Shown here piece by piece: positions 31,906 through 47,868 of a stretch of 64,000 nt of DNA. The DNA comes from Pseudomonadota bacterium (GTDB taxonomy: Bacteria; Pseudomonadota; Gammaproteobacteria; Burkholderiales; JAJZUU01). Location: the NCBI GenBank assembly GCA_021848325.1, contig JAJZUU010000009.1, positions 1,580-65,579 of the forward strand, in the 5' to 3' direction. A program made the position numbers and the translations under genes. Under the pieces are notes generated by a model, which saw only the letters and a program-made list of their open reading frames with translations, was not told where the DNA came from and made no database searches. How positions within the stretch are numbered: the first letter of the stretch is position 1; each line of letters starts with the position of its first letter.

Positions 31906-31909
31906 TCCA

Positions 31910-32055: not shown

Positions 32056-32137
32056 ACATCTTGTGGTGTAGTATTTTCAACGGTTAGAAGCACATTGCGC
32101 GTAAAAGTGCGTAATCCGTTGAAAAGGAGCCAACACC

Positions 32138-33256: not shown

Positions 33257-33336
33257 CGGTTTCAGGCAAAGCGGGCCGGCGCGGTGGGCAAACACCGGCC
33301 GGCCCTGACCGAAACGCAACTGCAAGGAGTTACGAA

Positions 33337-33762: not shown

Positions 33763-33767
33763 TTCCG

Positions 33768-33789
33768 GCCGCCTGCGGGCGGCTTTTTT
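33768..33789 (+). terminator. intrinsic terminator
   Basis: Stem GCCGCC/GGCGGC with loop TGCG, followed by a T6 run. Confidence 0.75.
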
Positions 33790-33830
33790 ATTCGATGACG
33801 TATAAATAACTTTGTGCCTGTTTGTGATGC

Positions 33831-33859
33831 TTGGCAATCGGTGGCGGTCAAGGTATAGT
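33831..33859 (+). promoter_or_regulatory. sigma-70-like promoter
   Basis: TTGGCA, 17-nt spacer, TATAGT. Confidence 0.6.
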
Positions 33860-33865
33860 CGCTGA

Positions 33866-34067
33866 CAGTATCTCGAAACGAAAACCGCGAAGCCAGACCG
33901 CAACGACTGGTGCAGTACGAGGCAACACCCCCGAGCGAAAGCTAAAGGTGGTGGTAACGGCCCCCAAGGAATGCACCGCCCTTGGAACCGATACCCCCTA
34001 GCCCCCGGCTAGGACAGGCGCTTAGAGATATAGACCGGAGCACTACATGCTGCCGGTCTTTTCATTT
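33866..34067 (+). ncRNA. candidate ~200-nt structured leader/small RNA ending in an intrinsic terminator
   Basis: Lies between promoter 33831-33859 and hairpin GACCGGAGCA...TGCTGCCGGTC plus TTTTCATTT (34033-34067). Internal hairpins CCAAGG/CCTTGG and CTAGCC/GGCTAG. No convincing ORF. Confidence 0.4.
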
Positions 34068-34102
34068 GTGGCGACCGGTAGCACCTCGCAGGAGAGTGCG
34101 CC

Positions 34103-34342
34103 ATGCAAACCACGAACACCCAAGAAGCATTTGAGTTAAGCGACCTTCGCGCCGTCGAAGCGCTCGCCGCCGAAAATCCCAAGTACCTGACTGTATCCAC
34201 GCTGCGCTGGCAGCTTCGCCACCGTGACACCAACGGCCTGGCCGCCGCGTGCGTGCGCGTCGGCAAACGCCTGCTGATTTCCAAGTCGCGTTATGAGCAC
34301 TGGCTGGCGACCCAAACCGAAGCGGCGCGGGGTGTGGCATGA
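34103..34342 (+). CDS. excisionase/AlpA-type helix-turn-helix DNA-binding protein
   Basis: 79 aa with RBS AGGAGA. HTH_17-like sequence LTVSTLRWQLRHRDTNGLAAACVRVGKRLLISKSRYEHWL. Confidence 0.7.
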   Translation: MQTTNTQEAFELSDLRAVEALAAENPKYLTVSTLRWQLRHRDTNGLAAACVRVGKRLLISKSRYEHWLATQTEAARGVA

Positions 34343-34620
34343 GCTACGCCGCCAACATCCCCCCGCAACTTGATTTCAGCAAGCGCGGCATGTGCGCCGC
34401 CCTCAACATGGCCGAGGACGAGTTCACCGACGCCTACCGTAACAAGGAAATCGCGCCCCCGGATAGCGTGCGCTTACGCGAGCCTAGGTGGTCAGTGATG
34501 GCCCTGGGGCAGGAAATCAAGAAACGCACCCCGGCGCATCTGGTGGGGCTGGAAGCCCTGAACTATCAGCTTGAAGCACTGGCTCGCGCCGAACGTGCAG
34601 AAGGGTGGCGACATGACTAA
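34339..34620 (+). CDS. hypothetical protein
   Basis: 93 aa. ATGA overlap with the upstream gene indicates translational coupling. Confidence 0.55.
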   Translation: MSYAANIPPQLDFSKRGMCAALNMAEDEFTDAYRNKEIAPPDSVRLREPRWSVMALGQEIKKRTPAHLVGLEALNYQLEALARAERAEGWRHD

Positions 34621-37081
34621 TGCAACCGCCCGTGCCATTGCGGCGCTACAAAAAGAAATGGCCTCAGGGGAAACTGAGGCCAGCAAAGAAAAAACCACTG
34701 TAAGCGAGAGTGTACCGAGTGCCAAAAATTTAGGCAACGGTCAGTTCGCCGAGCACGGCGCCGCTTTGCTTGCCAACGGCTATTTAATCATTCCAATCAA
34801 GCCGGGCCACAAGCGCCCGGCACTCGACAACTGGCAAACCGCACGACTTGGCGCCGCTGACCTGACCCGATACCCTAACCATGGCGTCGGTGTGCTGTGC
34901 GGGCAAGGTGCCCAGCCCATTGCCGCTATCGACGTGGATACTACGGACGGTGCATTGACTACCCGGTTCGTGGGTTGGTGCCAGGAACACCTCGGCGCCA
35001 CGTGTGAGCGCGTGGGCTTCGCGCCCAAGATCCTGCTCGCCTACCGGGCAGCGTCCGAAGGCTGGGGCAAGGCTACCGGCGCCTGGTTCGAGGACTTGGG
35101 CGGTGCGCGGCACCGGCTGGAAGTGCTGGGCAAGGGTCAGCAGTTCGTGGCCTACCATATCCACCCGGACACGGGCGAGCCCTACGAGTGGGTGGATTTC
35201 TTCGGCGGCCTCGATGCCATGCGGGCCGGCGACCTGCCCATCATCACCGAGGCCCAGGTCGAAGAAGCCCTGCAGGTGTTCGAGGCCATGGCCGAGGAAG
35301 CCGGGCTCGTGCGCGTGTCGGGCAGCAAGACCAAGGCTGGGGGCATGACCTCGGCGCCGGTCGACGACCCGCTCATGGCCTATGAGCCACCGGTCGGCAT
35401 TGACATGGGAGAGGCCCGGCGCCTTGTGTCCTACGTGGATAACGAGGACTACGACACCTGGCTGAAAGTCGGCATGTCGCTGCACCACGAGTTCGACGGC
35501 GACGTGGCCGCGCTGGATTTGTGGGATGAATGGTCGAGCACGGCAACGAACTACGCCAGCCGTGAGGACTTGGAGAAGCGGTGGGATAGCTTCGGCCGAT
35601 CGGGGCGCAACCCGACGACGGCGCGCTGGCTGCTCAAGGTAGCGGGCGAAGCAAAGAAGCCCGACCATGATGCTGGCCGATTAGACGCGGCACGCCGCGA
35701 ACACCAGAAGCAGGAAAACGAGCGCATTGGCAACGGCAACGGCCGTTACCCGACCGTCGAGGTTATCGACCTGAAAGCCGCATTGACCCGATTCGTTTTC
35801 ATGTCGGACGGTTCTCGCGTCGCCGACATCTTCAACCCGCACTACGATCTGGCCTTTTCCGACTGGTCGGCCACGTTCGCAGCCTCGAAGGAGCCGATAT
35901 GGGACGACGAGAAGCGGAAGGAGAAGCTGGTGGCTGTTCCGCTCTTGTGGCGCGCATCGAAGGAGCGCAAGACCGTGGTTTGCCGCACCTTCAAAGCAGG
36001 CGGTGCGCCGGTTCTCAACGATCCCAACGGGAAGCTGGCGCTGAACACCTGGCGCCCGTTTGATCGCACTGCGAACGTGCAGGACATGGCAGCGGCCGGG
36101 GTGGATCTGTTCCTGGATCACGTCGACCTGCTATTCGGGAAGGATGCCCCGCGTTTCCTCGACTGGCTGGCGCATATTGAGCAACGCCCCGGCGAACTCC
36201 CCCATACGGCGTGGCTGCACATTGCCAAGCACTTCGGCCTGGGCCGCAACTGGATGGAATCGGTACTCGCCCGCGTTTGGGCCGGCGCCGTGGCCGCCAA
36301 TCTTGACCTTGTTTCAGTGCTCAAGAAAGACGGCTACAACGGCCGGCTTTCTTGCAAGGTGCTGGCCGTGGTCGATGAAATTCGGGAAGGCGGCCGCGAC
36401 GCGCAGTGGGAGCACTCGGAGAAAATGAAGAGCATCATCACCGAGGAAACGCGGCAGATTAACCCGAAGTACGGGCGTCAGTCGGTAGAGTTCAATGCGT
36501 GCCGCTGGTTGATGTTCTCCAACCACTTGTCGGCCATCCCCCTAGAAGATGGCGACCGACGCATCGAGGTTGTCTATACCGAGGCCCGGCCACGGGGGGC
36601 AGATTACTACGCCAGGCTGTACTCCGTGCTCGACGATGCCATGTTCATCGCCGCCGTAGCGAAGTACCTGGGCGAGCGTGACATTGGCGCATTCAATCCG
36701 GGTGCCCACGCCGTCAATAGCGAATCGAAGAAGGCGGCAACCAAAGCGAGCCAAACCCCAATGGCAGCATGGTGCGAAATGCTGGTCGAGCACTGGCCCA
36801 GTGACCTGATTATGTCGCAGCACCTTTTCGACATCCTGGCGCGCGATGGTGCAGGCGGATCGCTCAACGCCGCACACCGACGAACCTTGGAGCAGCACGG
36901 CGTTGAAGCCCTGGGCAAGCCGTTGAAGGTGGAAGGCCGGCCGGTGCGCGTTTCAATTGTTCGCAACAAGGAACGGTGGAAACAGGCAGAACCTAACAAC
37001 CTGCGCGACGAGTTGGCGAAGGCCAATCCCGGATTGGACAGTGCCCGCGACTACCTGATGGAGTTTGCAGCGTGCGGGTAA
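34613..37081 (+). CDS. replication protein: bifunctional primase-polymerase N-terminal domain + PriCT-like + SF3/D5-type helicase-like C-terminal domain
   Basis: 822 aa. Prim-pol-like GYLIIPIKPGHKRP...GVGVLCG...IDVD, PriCT-like YDTWLKVGMSLHHEF and helicase-like LAVVDEI (Walker B). Start at ATG 34613 with RBS AAGGGTGG (34571 is an alternative). Confidence 0.8.
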   Translation: MTNATARAIAALQKEMASGETEASKEKTTVSESVPSAKNLGNGQFAEHGAALLANGYLIIPIKPGHKRPALDNWQTARLGAADLTRYPNHGVGVLCGQGAQPIAAIDVDTTDGALTTRFVGWCQEHLGATCERVGFAPKILLAYRAASEGWGKATGAWFEDLGGARHRLEVLGKGQQFVAYHIHPDTGEPYEWVDFFGGLDAMRAGDLPIITEAQVEEALQVFEAMAEEAGLVRVSGSKTKAGGMTSAPVDDPLMAYEPPVGIDMGEARRLVSYVDNEDYDTWLKVGMSLHHEFDGDVAALDLWDEWSSTATNYASREDLEKRWDSFGRSGRNPTTARWLLKVAGEAKKPDHDAGRLDAARREHQKQENERIGNGNGRYPTVEVIDLKAALTRFVFMSDGSRVADIFNPHYDLAFSDWSATFAASKEPIWDDEKRKEKLVAVPLLWRASKERKTVVCRTFKAGGAPVLNDPNGKLALNTWRPFDRTANVQDMAAAGVDLFLDHVDLLFGKDAPRFLDWLAHIEQRPGELPHTAWLHIAKHFGLGRNWMESVLARVWAGAVAANLDLVSVLKKDGYNGRLSCKVLAVVDEIREGGRDAQWEHSEKMKSIITEETRQINPKYGRQSVEFNACRWLMFSNHLSAIPLEDGDRRIEVVYTEARPRGADYYARLYSVLDDAMFIAAVAKYLGERDIGAFNPGAHAVNSESKKAATKASQTPMAAWCEMLVEHWPSDLIMSQHLFDILARDGAGGSLNAAHRRTLEQHGVEALGKPLKVEGRPVRVSIVRNKERWKQAEPNNLRDELAKANPGLDSARDYLMEFAACG

Positions 37082-37098
37082 TACCTTGCAGCGAACAC

Positions 37099-37261
37099 GT
37101 AACCGGCCGCCGATTGGTGGCCGTTTTTGTTTGGGCGGTTACGCTGGTTACGCTGGTTACGCTCAATATATAAACGTCAAACCATTCATTTTATTGATGG
37201 TTACTTTTTAGAAACGCCGTAACGAGCGTAACGAGCGTAACCGACCGCCGATTGGTGGCCG
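37099..37261. other. putative replication origin: inverted iteron triplets flanking an AT-rich core
   Basis: GGTTACGCT x3 (37137-37163), a 50-bp AT-rich stretch (37164-37213), then an inverted AGCGTAAC(C/G) x3 (37216-37242). Bracketed by a direct 25-bp repeat GTAACCG(G/A)CCGCCGATTGGTGGCCG (37099 and 37237). Confidence 0.65.
37104..37133 (+). terminator. intrinsic terminator after the replication gene
   Basis: Stem CGGCCGCC/GGTGGCCG (one G.U) with loop GATT, followed by TTTTTGTTTG. Confidence 0.65.
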
Positions 37262-37278
37262 AATTTCCGCGCAGTACG

Positions 37279-37520
37279 TGCGCGCGAGGCAACAAAAAAA
37301 ATTGACACCTGAAAAAGGCCCAAACTTCACGCATCGCGCGCGGGCATGCGCGTGTGGGGCTGGGCATCCGCACACCTGAAAAAGGGGCGGCAGCGCCTTG
37401 CTAGACGCATCGCGCGTGCGCATGCGCGCGAGGCAGACGTCCTAGGCCTCTAGACGATGGGGACCTAATCTCGCGCGTGCGCATGCGCGCGAGGCAGACA
37501 CCGTCCAGACACCTGAAAAA
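37279..37520. repeat. GC-rich repeat array / probable operator region
   Basis: 28-bp perfect repeat CGCGCGTGCGCATGCGCGCGAGGCAGAC at 37411-37438 and 37472-37499, with a related TGCGCGCGAGGCAAC at 37279. ACACCTGAAAAA at 37305, 37372 and 37509. ACGCATCGCGCG at 37329 and 37405. Confidence 0.85.
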
Positions 37521-37688
37521 ACGGCCGCAACGGATCAACTGACCGCTGGCAATCAAGCAACAGTGCGCCCTCAGCCGGCGTGTGCGTAATCCCGAGCGTA
37601 AAGGGCATGGTGCACGTACCTCGTAGGGGTGCCCGTACCTTTCTGTCTGACAAATACAGTCATCCCATGACCACCGGACAGAAACGAC

Positions 37689-37889
37689 ATGCCCAAGCTG
37701 ATAACCCTCGAAGAAGCTGCCGCCCGATGCGGCATTTCGCGCCGGACGGTGGATCGCTACGTCGAGCGCGGGCAGTTCGTGGCTCTCTATCAACTCCCTA
37801 CCGGCCACCTTCGCGTTGATGAGCACGACCTCAACGCTTGGCTGGCCGCATGCCGCACCGACAACCAACCGAAGGAAGCCACCCAATGA
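37689..37889 (+). CDS. excisionase/MerR-type helix-turn-helix DNA-binding protein
   Basis: 66 aa, LITLEEAAARCGISRRTVDRYVERGQF...LRVDEHDLNAWL. Confidence 0.7.
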   Translation: MPKLITLEEAAARCGISRRTVDRYVERGQFVALYQLPTGHLRVDEHDLNAWLAACRTDNQPKEATQ

Positions 37890-38782
37890 GAACCGCAGCC
37901 ATCGACAAGGAACTCGCCAAAGAGCACGAACAGCTTGGCGAGGCCCGAGCAGCAGCAGCCGAAGCCGCTGAGAAGCTGTCCACCGAACCCGGCAACAAGA
38001 AACATCGTTTGGCCGTGCTGGAAGCGCAGGCACGAGCCGATGAAATCAACGTGACCATCGAGGCCCTTAACCTGGCCCGCGAGCAGGCGGTCAAATTCGA
38101 TCAGTCCGAGGAAGGCCAGGCCACCCGCGCCAAGCGGGCGTCGATGGTGGCAACCGTGCGCGATGCCAATGCACAAATGGTTGCAGCAGCGGCCGCCGTC
38201 GACGAGGTGCTGGCCGCACTGCGCACCTGCGCCGTGCAATTCGCCGACGCTCGCTTGGCCGCTCAAAGTGCTAGTGCCGCCTATCTCGACCTGAACGAGA
38301 GCGACCTCGACGCCCGGATGCACGACTACCAAGCCCTGAACCACGAACCCGGCAACGTGGCGCACGCCTTGGCATTGACACTGCACGACATTGTTACTGC
38401 CACCGGACTGGATTGCAGCCACTTCCTCACGTTCAACCCCTACACGCTGACGCCCAACAGTGGCGTGGGCGGTGAATTCTTGCGAACCCTTGAACAAGGA
38501 GCACGGGCCAACACCCTGCGCGCTGTCACAACCCTGGCACATATCGAGGCAGTGCATACCGGCACCTATGTGCCGCCACCGCCCATGGAGCAGCCCAGAC
38601 CCAACCTGCACGCCGACCACTTCATCGCCGCGAACTTCAACGAACTGATGGAGCACGTTGCTGCAACCGGCGAAGAGCCAGCCCTCGACCCGGACGAAAC
38701 GCACACGATTGCAAAGGATTGGGACGAATACTTGGCTGCAACCTCGGGCCTCGAATCGCCCAAGGTGCTGCACCAGGAGTAA
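37886..38782 (+). CDS. hypothetical alanine-rich, predominantly helical protein (scaffold-like by composition only)
   Basis: 298 aa. ATGA overlap with the upstream HTH gene. N-terminal coiled-coil-like region. Confidence 0.6.
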   Translation: MRTAAIDKELAKEHEQLGEARAAAAEAAEKLSTEPGNKKHRLAVLEAQARADEINVTIEALNLAREQAVKFDQSEEGQATRAKRASMVATVRDANAQMVAAAAAVDEVLAALRTCAVQFADARLAAQSASAAYLDLNESDLDARMHDYQALNHEPGNVAHALALTLHDIVTATGLDCSHFLTFNPYTLTPNSGVGGEFLRTLEQGARANTLRAVTTLAHIEAVHTGTYVPPPPMEQPRPNLHADHFIAANFNELMEHVAATGEEPALDPDETHTIAKDWDEYLAATSGLESPKVLHQE

Positions 38783-38788
38783 CCAGCG

Positions 38789-38995
38789 ATGAATTACACC
38801 CCCGTCAATGTGCCGCTGCAAAGCCCCGAGCGCGTGGTCTATCCGCACGAGGTGACACCACCGCGTGAGTGTGAGGTCAGCAGGCCGAGCCCGACAGAGG
38901 CAGCGACATCCTGGTCGGGCTTCCACAAGCGGGGGTGCTATGAGCGAAGAAGCCAAGCGATACATCGTGCGCGAATACCTCGATCTTCACCCTGA
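38789..38995 (+). CDS. hypothetical small protein (uncertain)
   Basis: 68-aa ORF with a good RBS (AGGAG 9 nt upstream), but it overlaps the next ORF by 56 nt. Confidence 0.3.
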   Translation: MNYTPVNVPLQSPERVVYPHEVTPPRECEVSRPSPTEAATSWSGFHKRGCYERRSQAIHRARIPRSSP

Positions 38996-39122
38996 CAAAG
39001 AATTCCGGCGCGCGGTCTTTGCGTTGCTGCTTCTCGACAAACCTGAGCACCTAGACACGCTCTACGACATGGCCGTGCGCTTCGGCATGTGCGGCGAGAT
39101 TGTCGAGGGCGTTTTCATTTAA
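38940..39122 (+). CDS. hypothetical small protein
   Basis: 60 aa (MSEEAKRYIVREYLDLHPDKEF...) with RBS GGGGGTG. Confidence 0.45.
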   Translation: MSEEAKRYIVREYLDLHPDKEFRRAVFALLLLDKPEHLDTLYDMAVRFGMCGEIVEGVFI

Positions 39123-39134
39123 GGAGTCTTAACC

Positions 39135-39578
39135 ATGGCAATCATCGACGCAGCAACGCAGTTTTCCAACGCTCAAACCGTGACCGGTGCGAGCGCTGTC
39201 CTTTCCGCCAATACCCTTGATGCGCTACAGAACCGCGATATGGGCGGTGGTAAATCTTTTCAGGTGCTGTTTCAGGTCGGCACCGCATTTGCCGGCCTGA
39301 CGGCCCTCGAAATGCAGATCATCACGGCCGACGATGCCGGCCTGACCACGAACGTGAATGTGCTGGGCAGTACGGGTGCCATTCCAGTGGCTTCGCTGAC
39401 GGCGGCCGCCAGGTTCTACGCCAGCATCAACCCGCGCATCGGCAACAAGGGGCAGCGCTACATCGGCTGCCGCTACATCCCGACCGGCACCGGCACGGCT
39501 GGCACGATCAGCGCGCAAATCGGTGGCGACGTGGGCGACTTCAAGCCGGTTTATCCAACCGGCTATTCCGTGGCTTAA
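39135..39578 (+). CDS. Bbp16-like (phage capsid cement/decoration-type, jelly-roll) protein
   Basis: 147 aa with RBS AAGGAG. Pattern FSNAQTVTGASAVLSANTLD...RDMGGGKSFQVLFQV...ALEMQIITADD...RYIGCRYIPTGTGTAG resembles the Bbp16 family as I remember it. Not verified by search. Confidence 0.5.
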   Translation: MAIIDAATQFSNAQTVTGASAVLSANTLDALQNRDMGGGKSFQVLFQVGTAFAGLTALEMQIITADDAGLTTNVNVLGSTGAIPVASLTAAARFYASINPRIGNKGQRYIGCRYIPTGTGTAGTISAQIGGDVGDFKPVYPTGYSVA

Positions 39579-39589
39579 GGGGAACAATC

Positions 39590-40117
39590 ATGGACGTTGG
39601 AGGCGCAGGGATATTTTTACAGGCGGCCGGGGCCGTCAATTCGGCTATCGGCAGCTACTACAGCGCGAAGTCCCAGCAAAGCAGCCTGCGCTTCGCCGCA
39701 GACATCGCCGACATCAATGCGCGCATTTCCGAAATCGGGGCGCAATCTGAATTGATGAAGGGCGAGCGCGAGATTGGCGCCCTCACGATGCGTTACGGCC
39801 AGATGAAGTCCACGCAGCGCGCCTCACTCGCAGCAAACGGCGTGGATTTGGGCGAAGGCAGCGCGGCCGAGATCCAAGCCTCTACCGACATCCTCAAGGA
39901 AATCGACGCCAACACGCTGAACTCCAACGCTGTGCGCAGCGCCTGGGGCTATCGCACACAGGCGACCAACTACCAGAATGACGCCATCTTAAAGCGTGCC
40001 ACGGCCAGCACTATCGACCCACTTGGGGCGGGCCTCACGTCACTGCTGGGCAGCGCTGGCAGCGTGGCGAGCAGTTGGTACAACTACAACAAGGCGAGCG
40101 GCCAGCAGGTGCGGTGA
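39590..40117 (+). CDS. T7 gp14-like internal virion protein candidate
   Basis: 175 aa. Gly/Ala-rich hydrophobic N- and C-termini flank a long Q/A/S-rich helical region, with the size and composition of podovirus inner-core proteins. Confidence 0.45.
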   Translation: MDVGGAGIFLQAAGAVNSAIGSYYSAKSQQSSLRFAADIADINARISEIGAQSELMKGEREIGALTMRYGQMKSTQRASLAANGVDLGEGSAAEIQASTDILKEIDANTLNSNAVRSAWGYRTQATNYQNDAILKRATASTIDPLGAGLTSLLGSAGSVASSWYNYNKASGQQVR

Positions 40118-40629
40118 TGAGAACCATCGGGCTTTCTGCAAAAGGGAAGGTGGTAGGCGAATACGTGCCATCGGCAAAACTGACCTTTGCCCAGGTAGAG
40201 GAAATGCGCGCCCTGGCAACAGGCGGCCTCACATACACCGAAATTGGCGCCAGGTTTGGTGTTTCCAGATCGAGCGCGGCCAGGGCCATCAAGGGCGAAA
40301 CCTGGGCAGTTCCGGTAGCAAGGCTGGTGCAGCAGATCGAAACCGAGGACTTGGCCGCACTCACTTCTGGCGAGGGGCGGCTGCTGATTGCCAAAAAGGC
40401 CGGGGCGACTACCGGGTCAGTTGAACGAGCCATGAAGAAGACCGGCATTGCCTGGGATGGAAATATCAGGAAGCAGAAGCATTCCCATTGCAAGCAGGGG
40501 CACCCCCTGGAGGGTCAGAACCTGATTGTGAGGAAAAACGGCACCCAAGCCTGCCGAGAGTGCAGCCGGGAACGGGGGCGCACATTTGCACGGAGAAAGC
40601 GCGATGACGCTCGCCGTGGCCGTGAATGA
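40117..40629 (+). CDS. HTH DNA-binding protein with C-terminal Cys/His zinc-ribbon-like motif
   Basis: 170 aa. AKLTFAQVEEMRALATGGLTYTEIGARFGVSRSSAARAIKG, and HCKQGHPLEGQNLIVRKNGTQACRECSRER. Start overlaps the previous stop by 1 nt. Confidence 0.6.
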   Translation: MRTIGLSAKGKVVGEYVPSAKLTFAQVEEMRALATGGLTYTEIGARFGVSRSSAARAIKGETWAVPVARLVQQIETEDLAALTSGEGRLLIAKKAGATTGSVERAMKKTGIAWDGNIRKQKHSHCKQGHPLEGQNLIVRKNGTQACRECSRERGRTFARRKRDDARRGRE

Positions 40630-40834
40630 CGCCGGTTTGCGCATCGGTGAGGATCATCCGAACGCCAAGCTGACCGATGCCGAAGTGGAACGCATCCGCA
40701 GCCTGCACGAGGAAGGCATGGGCTACGAGGCTATCGCCGAAAAATACGAAGTAAGCAAGTGGTGCATCGGGCGTATTTGCCGATACGAACGCCGGGGGCA
40801 AACCACTGCACGCTGGAAAACAATCGAGGAGTAA
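40604..40834 (+). CDS. small HTH DNA-binding protein (paralogue of the N-domain of 40117..40629)
   Basis: 76 aa, HPNAKLTDAEVERIRSLHEEGMGYEAIAEKYEVSKWCIGRICRYERR. RBS GGAGA upstream of ATG 40604. Confidence 0.55.
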   Translation: MTLAVAVNDAGLRIGEDHPNAKLTDAEVERIRSLHEEGMGYEAIAEKYEVSKWCIGRICRYERRGQTTARWKTIEE

Positions 40835-40839
40835 AACCC

Positions 40840-43449
40840 ATGCCAACCGTACCCCGTTTCGACGGCCCGCAAGTAACGCCCAACACCTTGCCCCAGGTGC
40901 GAGTCGATACGCCTGAGTTCCACAACTACGCCGCCGACCAGGCGCAGCAATTAGGGCGGGCCATGAGCAACTTCGGCGGCCACATGACCGAGATTGCCAC
41001 CGACGCGCAAAACGAAGCCAACAAGACTGTGGCCAAGGACATCGACACGCAAGCCACGGCGGCTATCGGTGACGTGCTGTACAACCCGCAGAGCGGTTAC
41101 ATGGTCAAGGAAGGCAAGGACGTGGTCGCCGGCTATGGCGATGCAACCGAAGCCCTCAAGCAAGTGCGCCAGAAGGCCCTCGATGGGGTGCAGAACACGG
41201 CAGTGCGCCAAATGGTCGAGCCGGTCATCAATGCCCGGATGCAGAATGCCCTCGAAACGATCAACCGGCATTCAGGCACCGAAACTCGCCGCTATCAGGT
41301 GCAGACCTCGGATTCGCGGGCCATCGTCACGTTGCAGGACGCTGCCTTCAACTACGACGATGACAAGCGCTTCAACGAAGCCCTGGCCGTCACGCGGGAT
41401 GAAACCAACAACCTAGCCAAGCTGCAAGGCTGGGACGAAGCCACGGCACGCTTGCAGGCGCAGAAATACGCCGACACCGGCAACCGCATGCGCTACGAAG
41501 CCTGGGCAATCAAAGACCCGGTGGCCGCCTTCGCCCACTTCCAGCAAAACGCCGAGGGAATAAGCCCGCTGGTGCGCGACAACATCGGCCGCCAGCTTTT
41601 CCAGCATGCTGCCCCGGTGCTCGCCACCATTGTGAATCAGACAGGCGGGCCAGGCGTGGTGCCCTCTGCACCGGGCGACATGACAGCGCCGCGCGGCATC
41701 CGCAACAACAACCCTGGCAACGTCATGCGCGGCAGCGACACGTGGCAGGGTGAGGTGCAAGGCAACGACCCGCGCTATGCCAGCTTTGCGACGCCCGAGG
41801 CCGGCATACGGGCCATGGGCAAGACCCTCATCAACTACCAGGATAAGCACGGCATCAACACCGTGGAAGGCGTCGTGTCGCGCTGGGCGCCAGCCACCGA
41901 GAACAACACGGCCGCCTACGTCGCCACCGTGGCGAAGGAAATGGGCGTCAAGCCCGATGCAAACCTCGATTTGCACGACCCCGCAACGCTCAACAAGCTG
42001 ACCCGCGCTATGATTCGCGTCGAGAACGGCAAGCAGCCGTACACGGACGATCAGATCGCGCTGGGTCTGGCTGCCGCCACCGGCAACACCCCACTGCCAA
42101 CGGCGGCCAGTGCCAAGCGCGACCCCAATGCCTCTACCGGCATCGGCCTGGTTGACGGCCTGCCCGCCGACTGGAAGCTGCATGTGTTGCAGCTTGCGCG
42201 CAGCCAGGCGCATCAAGACATGGCCGAGGCCCGCGAATCGCTGCGCGGCCGGGTGCAGGATGCCAGCGCCGAGTATATGGCGAATGGCTTTGCATCCAAC
42301 CCGCCGAACGAGGCCGAATTTATCCGCGCTTATGGACAGGCCGAGGGCGCCGGCCGGTACCGTGATTTCCAAAGCGTCGCCACGCTGGGTCAAACCCTGC
42401 AACAGGTACGCACGTTGCCGAACGCCGCGCTCAACGACTTGTTGAAATCCTCGAAGCCCACACCGGGCGACGGCTTCGCAGTGCGGCAGCACAACTTCGA
42501 GATTCTTTCGGGGGCTATCGACACCGTGGTGAAGGCTCGCACCCAAGACCCGGTGGCCTACGCACTGACCGGCAAGAGCTACGGCCTTCGCCCGATTCAG
42601 CGCTTCGATGATCCACAGGGCACGGCCCAGGAGCTTGCCCGTCGAGCGGCCGCAGCGCCGCAAATGTCGGCCGACTACAACACGCCGCCGCGCCTCTTGT
42701 CCAACGCCGAGGCCAGCGCACTATCGGCCACGCTCAAGGCCAGTCCGGTGGAAGGGCAAAAGCAACTGCTGGGCACCATTGCAAAAAGCATCAACGACAT
42801 GGGCCTGCTCAAGGCGACCATGCAGTCCATTGCGCCAGATTCGCCCACGGTAGCCGTGGCCGGCATCTATCAGGCGCGCGGCCTGCGCACGACGGAAAAC
42901 CGCGACGTGGCCGACCTCATCCTGCGCGGGCAGGCCATCCTTACCCCGAACAAAAAGGAGGACGGCAGCGGCCACATGGGCGGCGCGTCGCTCATCAAGA
43001 TGCCCGAGGAAAAGCTGCTGCTATCCGACTGGACAAGCGCGACCGGCGACGCTTTCAAAGGCCGCGAGCAGGCCGCCGACCTGTTCATGCAAACCGCCAA
43101 GGCCATCTATGCGGCCCGCAGCGCCGAGGAAGGCGACTACTCGGGCGTGATCGACTCGAAGCGCTGGAAGGCCGCCATCAACCTGGCAACGGGCGGCATC
43201 GAGAGCCACAACGGCAGCAAGATCGTGATGCCCTACGGCGTGCCCTATGACAAGTTCCAGAATGCGCTGCAGGGCCAGGTCGACCGCATCGTGAAGGACG
43301 GCGGCGCACTAAACACCTCGACGCGCGAAATGATGCGTCTGCCACTGGAAAACGTCGGCGACGGCCGCTATCTGTTCCGGCGAGGCACCGGCTATCTGGT
43401 GGGCAAGGATGGCCGCCCGGTGGTGGTCGATTTGAACGGGGGCCGCTGA
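40840..43449 (+). CDS. large virion-associated (internal/ejection-type) protein candidate with GIRNNNPGN motif domain
   Basis: 869 aa with RBS GAGGAG. N-terminus MPTVPRFDGPQV... and central PRGIRNNNPGNVMRGSDTWQGE...YASFATPEAGIRAM, both recalled from phage structural proteins. Confidence 0.55.
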   Translation: MPTVPRFDGPQVTPNTLPQVRVDTPEFHNYAADQAQQLGRAMSNFGGHMTEIATDAQNEANKTVAKDIDTQATAAIGDVLYNPQSGYMVKEGKDVVAGYGDATEALKQVRQKALDGVQNTAVRQMVEPVINARMQNALETINRHSGTETRRYQVQTSDSRAIVTLQDAAFNYDDDKRFNEALAVTRDETNNLAKLQGWDEATARLQAQKYADTGNRMRYEAWAIKDPVAAFAHFQQNAEGISPLVRDNIGRQLFQHAAPVLATIVNQTGGPGVVPSAPGDMTAPRGIRNNNPGNVMRGSDTWQGEVQGNDPRYASFATPEAGIRAMGKTLINYQDKHGINTVEGVVSRWAPATENNTAAYVATVAKEMGVKPDANLDLHDPATLNKLTRAMIRVENGKQPYTDDQIALGLAAATGNTPLPTAASAKRDPNASTGIGLVDGLPADWKLHVLQLARSQAHQDMAEARESLRGRVQDASAEYMANGFASNPPNEAEFIRAYGQAEGAGRYRDFQSVATLGQTLQQVRTLPNAALNDLLKSSKPTPGDGFAVRQHNFEILSGAIDTVVKARTQDPVAYALTGKSYGLRPIQRFDDPQGTAQELARRAAAAPQMSADYNTPPRLLSNAEASALSATLKASPVEGQKQLLGTIAKSINDMGLLKATMQSIAPDSPTVAVAGIYQARGLRTTENRDVADLILRGQAILTPNKKEDGSGHMGGASLIKMPEEKLLLSDWTSATGDAFKGREQAADLFMQTAKAIYAARSAEEGDYSGVIDSKRWKAAINLATGGIESHNGSKIVMPYGVPYDKFQNALQGQVDRIVKDGGALNTSTREMMRLPLENVGDGRYLFRRGTGYLVGKDGRPVVVDLNGGR

Positions 43450-44729
43450 TGAGCTTCGACCTTTTCCCGAATGAGCAAGGGGCCGCGCTGCTGAATGCGG
43501 CGCGCCATCCTTCCACCACGCCCGAGCCCGGCGCCTTCGACAACTTCTTCAGCGGCGCCGGGCAATACACCATGCGCAGCCTGGCCGAAGCAGGCCGGGC
43601 CGTGTCCCTGGCCGGTGCTGTTGTGCCCATGGCAATCGACAAGATGACTGAGGGCGACAATTTCAGCGGCAAGAGCCTGACCGACCGCTACTTTGAAACC
43701 CACGACGAGGTGTTCAACAACGCCGTCGACTACTGGACGCCGAAGCCCGGCGAGGTGGGCGCAGCCGGCCAGATTACTGGGCAGCTTGCCGGGGGCATCT
43801 TGCAGGCTGTTGTGCATCCGGCCTTGTTGGTCGGCACCGCCGCGCTGTCGCCGGCCGAGGACTTGGTGCGCGAGGGCGTGGATGCGAGCACGGCCACCAA
43901 GGTGGGCGTCATCCAGGGCGCGGGCGCCGCCATCGGCTTGAAAATGCCGTTTCTCGGGCAGACGCTCGCCACGCGCGTGCTGTCTGGCGCGGGCGGCAAC
44001 CTGTTACAGGGCACGGCAGGCGCGGCCGCATCGTCGGGCGTGCTCAAGGCCGAGGGCTACGACCAGCAGGCCGAGCGATTCAACCCGTGGGATATGCGCG
44101 CCCGCATACTCGACACGATGCTTGGGGCCGCTTTCGGCGGCCTGGCGCACATCGGTGCGAAAGGCGAAGCCAAGGCGCCCAAGCTGACCCCGACCGACGA
44201 GGCCGCGCTGTTGGTGGCGAATCAGGCGCGGCATATCGAGGACGTGACCCCGCAGGGCCGGCCGGCGACCGATGCCGACGCAACGATGCACGCCGATGCG
44301 ATGCGCCAGGCCGTCGAGCAGGTGCTGCGCGGCGAGCCGGTCACTATCGACGGCCTGGTCAAGGACATGCACATGGTGCCCGACGAGGCACTGACACGGC
44401 AGCGCACCGAAGTGACCGACGAGGCCCAGCGCATCGCGGCCCTGGAAGCACCCATCGAGGCCCCCATCCTGCCCAAGATCGAGCCCGGCGCGCCCGTGGC
44501 TGATGCCATCCCGGCCGAGCACAACCCGGCGAGCCTCAAGGCACGGCAGGCTGTTGTGGATCGCCCCGACCTGACCATTCCGACCAACCGCACCGACGCG
44601 GACGGCAACCCCATCACCCTGCGCGCCGCCGACGCGCTGGCCCTGGCTGATGCCGATGTGGCGCACGCCCAGGCTACCGCCGCCAGCGTGTTCAAAACGG
44701 CAGCCCATTGCCTTCTAGGAGCCCTGTAA
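43449..44729 (+). CDS. hypothetical Gly/Ala-rich protein with hydrophobic segments (ejection-protein-like)
   Basis: 426 aa. Start overlaps the previous stop. Contains GAAGQITGQLAGGILQAVVHPALLVGTAAL and GVIQGAGAAIGLKMPFLG stretches. Confidence 0.5.
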   Translation: MSFDLFPNEQGAALLNAARHPSTTPEPGAFDNFFSGAGQYTMRSLAEAGRAVSLAGAVVPMAIDKMTEGDNFSGKSLTDRYFETHDEVFNNAVDYWTPKPGEVGAAGQITGQLAGGILQAVVHPALLVGTAALSPAEDLVREGVDASTATKVGVIQGAGAAIGLKMPFLGQTLATRVLSGAGGNLLQGTAGAAASSGVLKAEGYDQQAERFNPWDMRARILDTMLGAAFGGLAHIGAKGEAKAPKLTPTDEAALLVANQARHIEDVTPQGRPATDADATMHADAMRQAVEQVLRGEPVTIDGLVKDMHMVPDEALTRQRTEVTDEAQRIAALEAPIEAPILPKIEPGAPVADAIPAEHNPASLKARQAVVDRPDLTIPTNRTDADGNPITLRAADALALADADVAHAQATAASVFKTAAHCLLGAL

Positions 44730-47258
44730 ATGGCCGACCCTTTTCGCTGTATTGCCGCGCTCAACAAGGCCGCAGGCAAGGAACTGAACCCGGACGAAGC
44801 CCTTGAGGTTTTCGACCGCATCCAGCGCACGGCGCGCGACTTGGCAGCCGGCCGCATCCAACCCGAGGGCGGGGCGAATCTTTCCAGCCCGGAAGGAATC
44901 ATGCAGCACGCTGCCGAACTTGCGGCCAAGGAGTTGATCCACGACAAAATCCGGCAGCAGCACAACACGCACCTGCGCATTGCCATCCTGGGGGAGCGCA
45001 AGGCCGAGGTCGAAGCAATGAAGGGTGGGGGCATCGGCGACGTGGATGCAGTGCGTCGCCTCATCGCAAACGACCCGGACGGCCGCGCGGATCGCTTCTC
45101 GCTCGAAGCCCGCGTGCACGGCGTTTCCAACCTGCTGAAATCGCGCATTCAGGACACGTGGGCGGCCCTGGGCAACGACTTCCTGGGCTTCATCCAGCAG
45201 CACGACAAAATCCGCGACCTCATCACCGAAATGAAGGGCCAGGACAGCGGCAATGCGCTGGCGAAGAAGGGCGCGGAAGCCTGGGCAAAGGCCGCCGAGG
45301 AATCACGCGCATGGTTCAACGAGAAGGGCGGCGAAATCGGCCACCTCGACGACTGGGGCTTCCCCCAGCACCACAGCCAGGAGCACGTCGCCAAGGCCGG
45401 CGTGGATGCCTGGGTGGCCGATGTATATCCAGCGCTCAAGCTGGACAAGTACGTCGACCTTGCAGGCAATCGCATGACCGAAACCCAAATCAAGGAACTG
45501 CTCAAAAATGCCTGGTGGTCAATTGCCACCAACGGCGCCAACAAGATCGAGCCCGGCAAGGCGCGCGGCCACGGCGCCCGCGCGAACCGCCACGCCGAAG
45601 AGCGCCAGATCCATTTCAAGGATGCCGACGCGGTGCTCGCCTATTGGGCCAAGTACGGGGAAAAGACCTTTCCCGACATTCTGGTCGGCCACCTTGAACA
45701 AATGGCAAAGGACATCGGCTTCATCGAGCATTTCGGACCGAACCCGGACGGCGCCTATCGGGTGCTGCGCGACGAAGCCGAGCAGGCCGCGAAAATGTCA
45801 GACCCGGCATCGCTCGACAAGATCGACAAGGAACTGGCGCGCCTCGACAACCTCTACGACTACGCGGCCGGGCGCGCCAAACCCGTGGCGAACCGTGCAG
45901 TGGCGGGCGTGTTCGACGCGCTGCGCAACCTCAATTCAGCCGGCAAGCTGGGCAGCGCATTTTGGGCCTCGTTCTACGGCGACAAGGTCATGCTCGAAGC
46001 CATGGGCCGCGTCAATAAGCTGCCCATGTGGCAAAGCTGGTACAACGAGGTGCGCTTGCTCAACCCGTTCAACGGTGCCGAGCGCCGCCAGTTGCAGCGG
46101 CAAACCCTCATGCTCGATTACATGAAGTCGGCCATGTACCGCTTCGGCGACGACCTGGGCCGCTCATCCTGGACGGGCAAAATGTCGAACGCCGTCATGA
46201 AGCTGTCGGGCATGTCGGCAATCAACGAGTGGCGGCGCGGTGCCTTCGGCCTCACGATGATGGATAGCATCGGCCACGAGGTGAGCACAAAGACCTGGGC
46301 CGAAGTCGGCCAGCAGGACATCCACCTGCTCAAATCGTTCGGCCTCACCGAGGCGGATTGGAATATCTGGAAGCTGGCCCAGCTTGAGGACTACGGCCAC
46401 GGCAACAACACCATGCTGACCCCGGAGGCCATCGCCAAGATTCCCGACGAGGCCCTGGCGCAGATTGGCATAGAGAACCCGGCGCAGGCCCGGCGCGAGG
46501 CCGTGGTCAAGTACCTGGGCGCGCTGCATTCCGAATCGCTCAACGCCGTGATCGAGCCCGGATGGAAAGAGCGCGCCAGGATGGTGGGCGGCTTGCAGCG
46601 CGGCAATCTGCGCGACGAAATCACGCGCAGCTTCTGGCAGTTCAAGGCGTTCCCGATTACACAATTCGAGCGCCTTCGGGACATCGGCCTCTCGCGGCCG
46701 AACGCGGGCGGCAAGGCCCAGTTCATCGGCGCGGTGCTGCTCATGCAAACCATGGCCGGCGCCATGATGCTGCAAACGCAATCGCTGCTATCAGGGGAAG
46801 ATCCCCGCCCAATGGATGATTGGAAATTTTGGCTTGCCGCTTTCATCAAGGGCGGCAGCCTGGGTATCTACGGCGACTTCCTCTACTCGCAGAGTGGCAC
46901 GACGCGCTACGGCAGCGGCCCGCTGGAAGTGCTGGCCGGCCCGACCATCGGGTCGGCGGCCGATGCGGTCACGGCACTGGTGCAGGCGGGTAACGCCGTT
47001 GCAGCCGGCAAGGATACGCACCTGGGCGCCAAGCTGCTGAACATCGCCAAGGGCTACATCCCCGGTCAGAACCTTTGGTACACCAGGGCGGCCACCGACC
47101 ACATCATCTTCCAGAATGCGCAGGAAGCGCTCTCGCCGGGCTACCTGGCGAACATGCGGGCCAATTCGGTGCGGCAGTTCAAACAGGACTGGTGGTGGGC
47201 GCCGGGTGAATTTACGCCGGATCGCGCGCCCGACATGGCGAACGCGCTAGGGAGGTGA
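44730..47258 (+). CDS. large hypothetical virion-associated protein candidate
   Basis: 842 aa. Start immediately follows the previous stop. C-terminal hydrophobic segments (FIGAVLLMQTMAGAMMLQ, FWLAAFIKGGSLGIYGDFLY). No family recognised. Confidence 0.5.
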   Translation: MADPFRCIAALNKAAGKELNPDEALEVFDRIQRTARDLAAGRIQPEGGANLSSPEGIMQHAAELAAKELIHDKIRQQHNTHLRIAILGERKAEVEAMKGGGIGDVDAVRRLIANDPDGRADRFSLEARVHGVSNLLKSRIQDTWAALGNDFLGFIQQHDKIRDLITEMKGQDSGNALAKKGAEAWAKAAEESRAWFNEKGGEIGHLDDWGFPQHHSQEHVAKAGVDAWVADVYPALKLDKYVDLAGNRMTETQIKELLKNAWWSIATNGANKIEPGKARGHGARANRHAEERQIHFKDADAVLAYWAKYGEKTFPDILVGHLEQMAKDIGFIEHFGPNPDGAYRVLRDEAEQAAKMSDPASLDKIDKELARLDNLYDYAAGRAKPVANRAVAGVFDALRNLNSAGKLGSAFWASFYGDKVMLEAMGRVNKLPMWQSWYNEVRLLNPFNGAERRQLQRQTLMLDYMKSAMYRFGDDLGRSSWTGKMSNAVMKLSGMSAINEWRRGAFGLTMMDSIGHEVSTKTWAEVGQQDIHLLKSFGLTEADWNIWKLAQLEDYGHGNNTMLTPEAIAKIPDEALAQIGIENPAQARREAVVKYLGALHSESLNAVIEPGWKERARMVGGLQRGNLRDEITRSFWQFKAFPITQFERLRDIGLSRPNAGGKAQFIGAVLLMQTMAGAMMLQTQSLLSGEDPRPMDDWKFWLAAFIKGGSLGIYGDFLYSQSGTTRYGSGPLEVLAGPTIGSAADAVTALVQAGNAVAAGKDTHLGAKLLNIAKGYIPGQNLWYTRAATDHIIFQNAQEALSPGYLANMRANSVRQFKQDWWWAPGEFTPDRAPDMANALGR

Positions 47259-47347
47259 GCGGCGCGGCTACGAGGTCAGACACTAGCCGCTTCTCAGGCC
47301 GGGGTGACACTGCTCGCCCGGCCGCCGCTTTGAAATTGTAGCCTTGT

Positions 47348-47645
47348 TGGTGCCTGGGACGGGAATCGAACCCGTATAGCTTTCGCCGAGGGATTTTCGT
47401 CACACTACGGCTTTCGCCGCCAGCCTTCGCCGTTCGTGCGCTGGACTATGCCTTCACCATGGCGCTGCGCGCTGTAGGTGCCCCCCGTCTAGTCTCTACA
47501 CCTTCCCCTTGCGAGGCTTGGCTCGGCGTTGCCTCGGCCCGAAGGTCAGGGGTTTCACCGAATTTGAGGGGATTCACGCGGGCGCTTTCGCTCCCCGGTG
47601 CTCAATGTTTAAGTCCCTTGTGTCTACCAATTTCACCACCCAGGC
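47348..47645 (-). tRNA. tRNA-Leu (anticodon UAA) gene interrupted by a group I intron
   Basis: Exons 47645-47611 and 47397-47348 join to an 85-nt class II cloverleaf with all four stems Watson-Crick paired and loop CTTAAAA. Confidence 0.88.
47398..47610 (-). ncRNA. group I intron (bacterial tRNA-intron type, IC3-like), 213 nt, no ORF
   Basis: P1 CTTAA/TTGAG places a U.G wobble at the 5' splice site, and the intron ends in G. Core strings TCAAATTCGGTGAAACC, GGCAACGCCGAGCCAAGC and GAAGGTGTAGAGACTAGACGG are present. Confidence 0.85.
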
Positions 47646-47657
47646 GGCGAAACGCGT

Positions 47658-47686
47658 ATTTTACCGGAGAGTGCGCAGCGCGTAAA
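47658..47686 (-). promoter_or_regulatory. sigma-70-like promoter for the element-borne tRNA-Leu
   Basis: On the minus strand: TTTACG, 17-nt spacer, TAAAAT. The -10 ends about 12 nt upstream of the tRNA 5' end. Confidence 0.55.
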
Positions 47687-47811
47687 ATGCGCGTAACACA
47701 CAGCACAATTCACCACAAAACAACACGCCAGGATGACACCCCAACACAACAAAAGCCCCCGTTTTCATTGCGTTACGTTGCGTTGCATTGAGTGGGTTTG
47801 CGTTGGGCCTT

Positions 47812-47820
47812 GACTTAAAA
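47812..47820. repeat. attR core (GACTTAAAA)
   Basis: Identical to 32047-32055. Confidence 0.8.
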
Positions 47821-47868
47821 TCCGTTGACCGAAAGGTCGTACCGGTTCGATTCCGGTTCCGGGCACCA
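47812..47868 (+). pseudogene. leuZ: tRNA-Leu(UAA) 3' part (anticodon loop, 3' stem, variable arm, T arm, acceptor, CCA)
   Basis: GACTTAAAATCCGTTGACCGAAAGGTCGTACCGGTTCGATTCCGGTTCCGGGCACCA. Complements the 5' half at 32017-32055. Confidence 0.9.

Follow-up and report, generated by a model that had tools for sequence, protein, structure and literature searches.

An integrative element inserted in the tRNA-Leu(UAA) gene of Betaproteobacteria carries an intron-split tRNA-Leu(UAA) gene as apparent replacement

The stretch analysed here (the window) is 64,000 nt of contig JAJZUU010000009.1 from a Burkholderiales genome, and positions are those of this stretch unless another contig is named. A 15,765-bp integrative element is inserted in the anticodon loop of the resident tRNA-Leu(UAA) gene of the host, and inside the element, on the minus strand at 47645-47348, lies a second tRNA-Leu(UAA) gene (the cargo tRNA gene), which is interrupted by a 213-nt group I intron. 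The best explanation as a whole, which we consider fairly likely, is that the element splits the host tRNA-Leu(UAA) gene and replaces it by this intron-bearing, self-splicing cargo tRNA. The anatomy of the gene, the insertion, the non-restoration of the host gene, the same anticodon of the cargo, the intron fold, the purifying selection and the recurrence in other hosts were directly observed. The initial annotation of this locus missed that the element destroys the host tRNA-Leu(UAA); the intron-bearing gene is the apparent replacement.

Two long-standing questions on bacterial tRNA group I introns are addressed by this arrangement: how they move between lineages, and whether selection acts on them to splice. 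The intron rides in the apparent replacement tRNA of an element which targets one and the same tRNA gene in distantly related Betaproteobacteria, and splicing has probably become a condition of host survival. The tRNA-dependent lysogeny, experimentally established only in actinobacteriophages, is extended to Proteobacteria on strong comparative evidence, namely empty and occupied sites and several host lineages. Each of the two components was already known; in the literature we found no description of the two combined, of this host phylum or of a family with and without the intron.

Insertion of the element and loss of the host tRNA gene

The features of the insertion are as follows.
32056..47820, no strand: inserted integrative element, 15,765 bp with one core copy counted; absent from contigs L133, L135 and L138
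32017..32055, plus strand: orphan 5' half of the resident tRNA-Leu(UAA), attL side, ending in the anticodon loop (junction reading, empty sites)
32047..32055, plus strand: attL core GACTTAAAA, 9 bp, direct repeat (overlap of the junction alignments)
47812..47820, plus strand: attR core GACTTAAAA, 9 bp, direct repeat (empty-site alignment)
47821..47868 (47812-47868 with the core), plus strand: orphan 3' half of the resident tRNA-Leu(UAA) (junction reading, empty sites)

Empty sites were located by exact-protein look-up of PgsA. The three conspecific contigs L133, L135 and L138 have pgsA, tRNA-Gly, tRNA-Cys, an intact 87-nt tRNA-Leu(UAA), the aminotransferase gene and uvrB in this order with nothing inserted, and are without the integrase, the phage genes and the intron-bearing tRNA. 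The left junction (31436-32055) aligned to the empty site at 99.5% and the right junction (47812-48030) at 100%, and the two alignments overlapped on exactly the 9-bp core GACTTAAAA. The element was placed at 32056-47820 because the flank alignments to the empty sites end at 32055 and start at 47812. When the two resident halves were joined through one copy of GACTTAAAA, they gave a perfect 87-nt tRNA-Leu(taa). The insertion of the element into the anticodon loop of the resident tRNA-Leu(UAA) is thus proven by the empty sites. The element is polymorphic in the population, with empty and occupied sites both present, and the occupied configuration was found as identical copies in several independent assemblies; the metagenome-assembled genomes (MAGs) GCA_027357355.1 and GCA_027438195.1 are occupied, and the MAG GCA_027438135.1 is without the element.

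The host gene is not rebuilt at either side. At attL the sequence reads ...CTTAAAA and runs on past the core with ACATCTTGTGG, which is not the anticodon stem. ARAGORN called no tRNA at either junction, and both resident halves are orphans, the 3' half holding the 3' strand of the anticodon stem, the variable arm, the T arm, the 3' strand of the acceptor stem and CCA. The identity between attP and attB is only 9 bp, which leaves the host with two dead halves of the tRNA gene. The resident tRNA-Leu is the last gene of a pgsA-tRNA-Gly-tRNA-Cys-tRNA-Leu array. The cargo tRNA gene lies inside the element about 165 bp from the right-hand core in inverted orientation. The attP junction is predicted as GGGCCTTGACTTAAAAACATCTTG; neither a free or circular attP junction nor either element end had any match (0) in IMG/VR.

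An opposite arrangement could be imagined, in which the intron-bearing tRNA, as a chromosomal tRNA-Leu gene, is the host attachment site and a prophage was integrated at its 3' end. The 3' end of this tRNA (47348) does face the phage genes, 90 bp from the last phage open reading frame (ORF), and tRNA 3' ends are the commonest integration arrangement. However, no segment of 14 nt or longer from 47280-47700 is repeated anywhere in the window, the insertion point is in a different tRNA-Leu, and the empty-site contigs, which have no intron-bearing tRNA, rule the arrangement out; we regard it as having practically no chance. The claim of the initial annotation that the gene is carried on an integrase-bearing element agrees with the empty sites, where integrase, phage genes and intron-bearing tRNA are absent together; the gene is not the target of the element.

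The neighbouring tRNA-Cys, which adjoins the integrase, was also considered as attachment site and rejected, as it is unaffected in the empty site. A 14-nt match between 31879 and 47842 is merely the T arm common to two tRNAs. Between tRNA-Cys and the resident tRNA-Leu there is a relic (31909-31950) resembling a tRNA-Leu 5' half (GCCCGGATGGCGGAGCAGGGACACACAAGGGATTTCAAGA). It predates the element because it is present in the empty-site contigs too, and it may be left over from an earlier event at this tRNA.

Structure of the cargo tRNA gene

The cargo tRNA gene was divided as below.
47611..47645, minus strand: exon 1 of the element-borne tRNA-Leu(UAA), 35 nt (sequence, ARAGORN on spliced and unspliced forms)
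47398..47610, minus strand: group I intron, IC3-type by inspection, without ORF, 213 nt (Rfam, helix pairing, covariation)
47348..47397, minus strand: exon 2 of the element-borne tRNA-Leu(UAA), 50 nt (sequence, ARAGORN)
47658..47686, minus strand: promoter-like site TTTACG-17-TAAAAT (consensus scan, pattern match only)

Exon 1 contains, in order, the 5' strand of the acceptor stem, the D arm, the 5' strand of the anticodon stem and C32, U33 and U34. Exon 2 contains A35, A36, the 3' strand of the anticodon stem, a 13-nt variable arm, the T arm, the 3' strand of the acceptor stem, A73 and an encoded CCA. The intron therefore splits the cargo tRNA between U34 and A35. With ARAGORN, the joined exons formed an 85-nt class II tRNA-Leu(taa) with four perfect stems and the 3' end ...GGC-A-CCA, and in its intron mode the unspliced genomic sequence was called as tRNA-Leu(taa) with a 213-nt intron at position 36. 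The predicted junction of the ligated exons reads …GGGACUU followed by AAAAUCCC…. The anticodon is UAA, the same as that of the disrupted host tRNA.

The promoter-like site stops 12 nt upstream of the tRNA 5' end, and the consensus scan found two such sites where 0.2 were expected. A GC-rich hairpin without T-run (GGCCGGG…CCCGGCC, 47297-47323) lies between the convergent ORF of an 842-amino acid protein and the tRNA 3' end; the terminator scan gave no call for it, and it may act in bidirectional termination or in processing.

Default ARAGORN found only tRNA-Gly and tRNA-Cys in the window and missed the intron-split tRNA-Leu, and the scan of the window with Rfam gathering thresholds returned only tRNA-Gly, tRNA-Cys and the signal recognition particle (SRP) RNA, without the intron. 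With default ARAGORN and Rfam gathering thresholds, as used in standard annotation, neither the intron-split gene nor the split resident gene is detected.

Family and fold of the group I intron

A focused Rfam scan (601-nt search) matched Intron_gpI (RF00028) from end to end (model 1-253) with 37.2 bits and E = 6.5e-08, where the gathering score is 50. GC-rich homologues (Mycetohabitans, plasmid pCTX-M3, Burkholderia lata and contig L273) scored 31.8-40.4 bits on the same model, and the AT-rich viral homologue L018, which aligned together with the window intron, scored 68 bits. So the GC-rich clade as a whole, and not the window locus in particular, accounts for the sub-threshold score. The RF00028 seed was at that time without any bacterial sequence (Williams 2020).

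All helices from P1 to P9a pair completely in the window intron.
47613-47609/47605-47601, minus strand: P1, CUUAA/UUGAG, 5 of 5 paired
47600-47575, minus strand: P2, closed by GC-GAAA-GC (GAAA loop)
47571-47566/47486-47481, minus strand: P3, CCCCUC/GGGGGG
47562-47556/47528-47522, minus strand: P4
47552-47551/47533-47532, minus strand: P5
47516-47505, minus strand: P6, GCAA loop
47494-47490/47448-47444, minus strand: P7, GACUA/UAGUC
47480-47455, minus strand: P8
47440-47436/47405-47401, minus strand: P9
47420-47407, minus strand: P9a, GCGGC-GAAA-GCCGU (GAAA loop)
47398, minus strand: omega-G, last intron base, invariant column (G248) in the 32-sequence alignment

The alignment consisted of the window and 31 intron-split tRNA-Leu(UAA) homologues, of which 29 came from IMG/VR contigs, one from a Mycetohabitans megaplasmid and one from pCTX-M3. 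It was made by MAFFT without structural reference, and the P3/P7 pseudoknot was entered by hand. RNAalifold returned P1-P5, P8 and P9, and also the acceptor and anticodon stems of the tRNA, which enclose the intron and covary across it. The U.G wobble of P1 (U35.G43) stands exactly at the 5' splice site and was found at this place in 32/32 sequences. Standard pairs occupied 98.2% of the pair cells, compared with 33-40% when the 3' partners were slid by 1-3 columns, and double-sided (compensatory) changes were present in 49/70 pairs. None of 500 shuffles equalled any covariation measure, and because of this covariation a chance origin of the fold is excluded. Pairs with compensatory changes numbered 4/6 in P3, 6/6 in P8 and 1/7 in P4, where the other pairs are invariant. 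P7 showed a single A-U to G-C swap, supplied by the pCTX-M3 copy; its 5' strand belonged to the search motif, and its invariance is partly ascertainment. Thermodynamic stability did not discriminate (minimum free energy z = 0.70 against shuffles) and is uninformative for such GC-rich RNA.

By inspection the intron has the traits of IC3: a length of 213 nt, a compact core without P5abc or P2.1, and GAAA loops closing P2 and P9a. We assign the intervening sequence, on these traits, to the IC3-type group I introns, and classical bacterial tRNA introns were also placed in IC3 by Williams (2020). The reading of the initial annotation holds for this gene: the sequence at 47348-47645 is exactly as it was quoted, the spliced exons make an 85-nt tRNA-Leu(UAA) with all stems perfect, the intron stands at the classical U34/A35 site with the U.G of P1 and omega-G at 47398, and the conserved core that it had recognised pairs throughout, including the P3-P7 pseudoknot and P4-P6.

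Recurrence of the element in other hosts

The cluster of integrases at 90% identity had 49 members, from MAGs labelled Ottowia, Azonexus, Rhodocyclaceae and Gammaproteobacteria. The identical left end of the element, after …GACTTAAAA, was joined to three different host tRNA-Leu(UAA) 5' halves, namely in the window, in Azonexus (L262) and in Ottowia (L264/L265). The integrases were 96-98% identical, whereas the host proteins UvrC and PgsA were only 60% and 71% identical. Synteny and this 60-71% identity to the Azonexus MAG point to a betaproteobacterium as the host of the window element. Other genes of the element were mosaic, for example a structural protein of 869 amino acids with 55% identity. 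The left end of the window element (32113-32130) also holds AATCCGTTGA…AAAGG, which resembles the host tRNA 3' half (AATCCGTTGACCGAAAGG, 47819-47838) and is kept in the Azonexus and Ottowia elements although the host halves there differ; it may be a vestige of an ancestral tRNA-restoring attP, or may serve as a core-type site for binding.

To sample right ends, we used homologues of the 842-amino acid protein, which were 88% identical in L273, 77% in L278-L281 and 75% in L268. The minus-strand tRNA-Leu(UAA) of L273 contains a 213-nt intron which shares 87% identity with the window intron, and this cargo is followed by the same element end (GGGCCTTGAC and then TTAAAA), the orphan 3' half of another host and different host genes. 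In L278-L281 (about 24 contigs) a tRNA-Leu with a 210-nt intron lies beside the orphan half of a third host and a Glu-Cys ligase gene. At the same place in L268 there is a tRNA-Leu(UAA) without intron, then an orphan half matching the Azonexus-type 5' half. Intron-bearing cargo copies were thus found at three different host loci. The initial annotation had proposed the element as a vehicle for horizontal spread of the intron, and this is supported by the nearly identical integrase at tRNA-Leu(UAA) in hosts of such distance and by the three loci. On these sequences, to disrupt and replace is a trait of the element family, and the intron is a variable feature of the replacement gene. The natural relatives with and without intron are a ready-made experimental pair, and the module of integrase, attP and tRNA is a candidate integration tool for Betaproteobacteria.

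In L273 the cargo (5628-5932) and the orphan host 3' half (about 6100-6160), which lies about 170 bp off and inverted, have the same variable arm CGCTTCCAGAAATGGGGCG. In L278, TCCCTCGGC is common to the cargo and the host halves. The shared arms suggest gene conversion or exon exchange between the cargo and the resident tRNA-Leu, and such exchange is a possible route for the intron into host genes.

We also considered an adaptive role of the intron for the element: with the anticodon-loop sequence split, neither its own integrase nor a second element copy could use the cargo as a pseudo-attB. The intron interrupts the 9-bp core sequence in its middle and, in the cargo gene, moves the right-hand half of the attB inverted repeat 213 nt away; the cargo is close to the core (about 165 bp) and inverted. 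However, L268 evidently tolerates an intron-less cargo there whose GACTTAAAA core is perfect, and the idea was downgraded for this reason. Besides, the cargo junction still holds 8/9 core bases, and a selfish or neutral intron fits the data equally well. We therefore see an adaptive role of this kind as rather improbable.

Function of the cargo tRNA

Substitutions between the window and L273 fell on 9/150 paired positions and on 30/148 unpaired positions, and the anticodon stem was swapped compensatorily across the intron, from AGGGA/TCCCT to GCGGA/TCCGC. The cargo tRNA and the intron helices are thus under strong purifying selection. This bears on the thought that the cargo gene is a decaying pseudogene, whose intron no longer splices and whose tRNA is not made, a thought which the sub-threshold Rfam score and a minimum free energy no better than shuffles would favour. 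Against it, no helix of the window copy is broken, the U.G pair and omega-G are kept, the substitutions relative to L273 avoid paired positions and include compensatory pairs, and identical copies are present in several assemblies. Decay of the gene is very improbable in our opinion.

The UUA codon occurs in host genes: three times in uvrC, once in pgsA and once in dnaX. By standard wobble rules, the decoding of UUA needs a tRNA with UAA anticodon. We propose that the tyrosine integrase of a podovirus-derived element would insert it into the anticodon loop of the host tRNA-Leu(UAA), and that the cargo tRNA-Leu(UAA), with its own putative promoter, would supply the lost decoding of UUA codons. 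The precursor would have to self-splice before the tRNA can work, by guanosine attack at the P1 U.G pair and then exon ligation after omega-G. The cargo tRNA would be expressed, spliced and charged by leucyl-tRNA synthetase, and would be needed since the host presumably has no other tRNA-Leu(UAA). The reading of UUA codons in such a cell would probably rely on a ribozyme. A wider reading, in which the intron-spliced cargo is the only functional tRNA-Leu(UAA) in carriers, so that host viability rests on a mobile ribozyme, and in which the element family is a direct natural vehicle moving the intron between lineages and seeding host chromosomes by cargo-resident recombination (as the L273 variable arm hints), is held tentatively, with our belief falling a little short of the balance.

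Several points weigh against replacement of the host tRNA by a self-splicing cargo. In L274 (Noviherbaspirillum MAG GCA_035254105.1, virion protein 85% identical) a minus-strand tRNA-Ser(GGA) at 5874-5964 stands instead of tRNA-Leu; the contig ends at this tRNA, and it could be a variant targeting and replacing another tRNA. No tRNA was found at the cargo position within the available flank of L270, L272, L275/276, L277 and L282. The L273 copy has a C.A mismatch in P4, and the Rfam score of the window intron is below the gathering score, although such scores are typical of its GC-rich relatives. With Pfam and PHROGs no recognisable capsid, portal or terminase gene was found in the element, where several ORFs had no matches. 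Lysogeny by a complete phage is doubtful for this reason, and the element may be a satellite or a defective prophage. At last, a second host tRNA-Leu(UAA), if present, would make the cargo dispensable.

This last point is the core of another explanation, that the intron-bearing tRNA-Leu is a dispensable passenger which adds dosage or is neutral, with another host tRNA-Leu(UAA) elsewhere. It is matched with the relatives that have no tRNA at the cargo position and with the fact that phage tRNAs are often accessory. But a cargo with the same anticodon lies beside the att site in four independent element variants, all splitting tRNA-Leu(UAA); selection on the tRNA and the intron helices is strong; housekeeping genes use UUA codons; and the experimentally proven precedent has the same geometry (PMC10865867). 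A dispensable passenger is therefore unlikely, though it keeps more weight than the other alternatives considered here. The replacement of the split host gene by the cargo remains our preferred explanation, and the best-supported mechanism for it is a proteobacterial counterpart of tRNA-dependent lysogeny in which tRNA-Leu(UAA) is complemented by a gene with an IC3-type intron of the self-splicing kind.

Comparison with known systems

The tRNA-dependent lysogeny has been shown genetically in mycobacteriophages (Guerrero-Bustamante & Hatfull, mBio 2024, PMC10865867). Fionnbharth uses tRNA-Lys-TTT with a 10-bp core and Gaia uses tRNA-Leu-CAA with an 8-bp core; in the actinobacteriophage cases the host has a single copy of the tRNA gene, and lysogens are viable only with the phage tRNA (PMC10865867). 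The authors considered that the phenomenon may exist outside Actinobacteria (PMC10865867), and a Sinorhizobium group mentions Mesorhizobium prophages in this context. The window element is alike in its tyrosine integrase, in an attB overlapping a host tRNA gene, in a short core (9 bp here, 8-10 bp there) with no tRNA reconstructed at attL or attR, and in carrying a tRNA of the same anticodon, as do its relatives L273, L278-L281 and L268. It is different in that the hosts are Betaproteobacteria and not Actinobacteria, in that the complementing tRNA has a group I intron, of which none is reported for phage tRNA genes in PMC10865867, and in that it has only 15.8 kb with no recognisable capsid or terminase gene, whereas essentiality of the cargo is known for actinobacteriophages only. 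We describe it as working like tRNA-dependent lysogeny, and not as a proven member, because capsid and terminase genes were not recognised. No mention of an intron-bearing complementing tRNA in tRNA-dependent lysogeny was found in the literature.

Canonical tRNA-targeting islands restore the target gene (Islander, PMC4383910). Such islands and prophages are like the window element in having a tyrosine integrase beside a tRNA gene and a crossover in the anticodon-loop sublocation. They are unlike it in that their attP holds the 3' part of the tRNA (identity of 30-45 bp or more) and the gene is rebuilt at one junction, while here 9 bp are shared and nothing is rebuilt. Phage HP1 integrates at the anticodon stem-loop of a tRNA-Leu.

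With the classical cyanobacterial and plastid-type tRNA-Leu intron, the window intron shares the U34/A35 site (CUU/a...g/AAAA), the U-1.G pair in P1, omega-G, a compact ORF-less IC3-type core and the GAAA loops L2 and L9, a likeness drawn trait by trait. It differs from that intron by being GC-rich, proteobacterial, below the Rfam threshold and on an integrase-mobilised element instead of a chromosomal or plastid locus. The Azoarcus tRNA-Ile(CAU) intron is a small IC3 ribozyme in a betaproteobacterial anticodon loop, at a different loop position and chromosomal. The core motifs CAAAUUCGG..GAAAC and GAAGGUGUAGAGACUAGACGG are presumably common to the window and Azoarcus introns.

Distribution of intron-split tRNA-Leu genes

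Group I introns in proteobacterial tRNAs were taken as rare in the initial annotation, which is outdated; intron-split tRNA-Leu genes are plentiful in genomes of Proteobacteria, on viral contigs and on resistance plasmids. Williams (2020 preprint) listed 5,292 intron-split bacterial tRNA genes, with the classical geometry named 'Leu.3Ug' and with cases from Proteobacteria included. In our scans the P7-core motif was present in more than 120 IMG/VR contigs, at least 45 of them with tRNA-Leu(taa) having introns of about 200 nt, often in phage tRNA arrays. The motif of the GC-rich clade was present in more than 120 species genomes, with at least 39 tRNA-Leu(taa), in genera such as Burkholderia (B. 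lata), Paraburkholderia, Mycetohabitans (megaplasmid), Caulobacter, Brevundimonas, members of Acetobacteraceae and others. Among the matches listed, the locus closest to the window was about 72% identical.

Chromosomal, plasmid and IMG/VR intron-split tRNA-Leu(UAA) genes are like the window gene in their 66-73% identity, splice geometry, end-to-end alignment and shared covarying helices. The proteobacterial and IMG/VR copies listed are unlike it in having no orphan tRNA-Leu halves alongside, and the copies on phage contigs are mostly in tRNA arrays. No orphan halves beside the intron-bearing tRNA were found among the 120 viral and 120 genomic motif-bearing loci listed, and about 84 intron-bearing tRNA-Leu loci among these matches (45 viral, 39 genomic) were likewise all without flanking orphan tRNA-Leu halves. 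Therefore the orphan-halves arrangement is specific to the element family, as far as its absence in the motif-scan loci listed tells. A 2014 review stated "little evidence" for horizontal movement among bacteria, and at that time protein-coding genes were the only known sites of group I introns in phages (PMC3984707). A limited literature search gave no later report of intron tRNAs on phages or islands.

In pCTX-M3 (L001:2995-3293; NC_004464.2, about 61823-62121) we identified an intron-split tRNA-Leu(UAA) gene which is not annotated and shares about 69% identity with the window gene. The same type was present in more than 1,280 other plasmid records from E. coli, Klebsiella, Salmonella, Acinetobacter and others. 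The plasmid gene adjoins the aac(3)-IId / AAA-ATPase module of conjugative resistance plasmids, and its exons and helices covary with the family. ARAGORN in intron mode miscalls the pCTX-M3 copy as tRNA-Stop(tta), and we found no paper on the plasmid-borne copy (search for tmrB and group I intron).

Other intron-split tRNAs appeared in the same scans. The IMG/VR loci L036 (2742-3013), L050, L067, L075 and L108 are intron-split with UAA anticodon and a class I body; these tRNAs have a short variable arm and the D arm GCCCAGCGGAAGAGGC, which is not a Leu-type architecture. About 21 IMG/VR loci (e.g. L016, L023, L025, L028) have a recurrent 196-198-nt group I intron in a tRNA labelled 'Tyr(ata)' by ARAGORN, for which the splice point is probably misplaced. 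In L153, L171, L229, L252 and L255 (Gemmatimonadales, Planctomycetia, Microbacteriaceae) group I intron 3' ends abut tRNA 3' halves. ARAGORN failed to assemble these loci, and for this reason intron-split tRNAs are under-called even in intron mode.

Gene content of the element and host flanks

The other features of the element are listed here.
32138..33256, plus strand: tyrosine integrase, 372 amino acids (Pfam Phage_integrase, 1.6e-26)
34613..37081, plus strand: primase/helicase-like protein with Prim-Pol, PriCT_2 and DUF5906 (Pfam; 822-amino acid gene call)
37689..37889, plus strand: HTH_17 excisionase-like protein, 66 amino acids (phrog_66 excisionase/regulator, 1.2e-11; Pfam HTH_17)
39135..47258, plus strand: podovirus-type virion gene block (Pfam; PHROGs 427, 418, 992, 1145, 684)
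32095..32115, plus strand: repeated motif TGCGCGTAAAAGTGCGTAA, left end, with 9-10-mers in common with 47677-47697
47677..47697, plus strand: second copy of the repeated motif, GCGCGTAAAATGCGCGTAA, overlapping the -35 region of the promoter-like site of the tRNA and kept in L278

Three small ORFs lie after the integrase and before the primase. The virion block encodes Bbp16, a T7 gp14-like internal virion protein and the structural proteins of 869, 426 and 842 amino acids. The repeated motif TGCGCGTAAAAGTGCGTAA/GCGCGTAAAATGCGCGTAA is a candidate integrase arm site or regulatory site by its sequence.

The element is compact in several hosts, about 15.6-17 kb: it has 15,765 bp in the window, and contigs L006, L263 and L266 have 16,010, 15,581 and 17,111 nt. 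The compact size, together with a gene set of integrase, excisionase-like protein, primase and only internal-virion or ejection-type proteins, looks more like a podovirus satellite than random prophage decay. The full-phage relatives L009 and L010 run on into further phage genes.

Upstream of the element the host genes are rnc-era-recO-pdxJ-acpS-…-efp-…-uvrC-pgsA, tRNA-Gly and tRNA-Cys, and downstream are the aminotransferase gene, uvrB, ffs, dnaX, ybaB and recR. The bacterial SRP RNA (ffs) was identified at 51739-51837 with 82.5 bits, upstream of dnaX.

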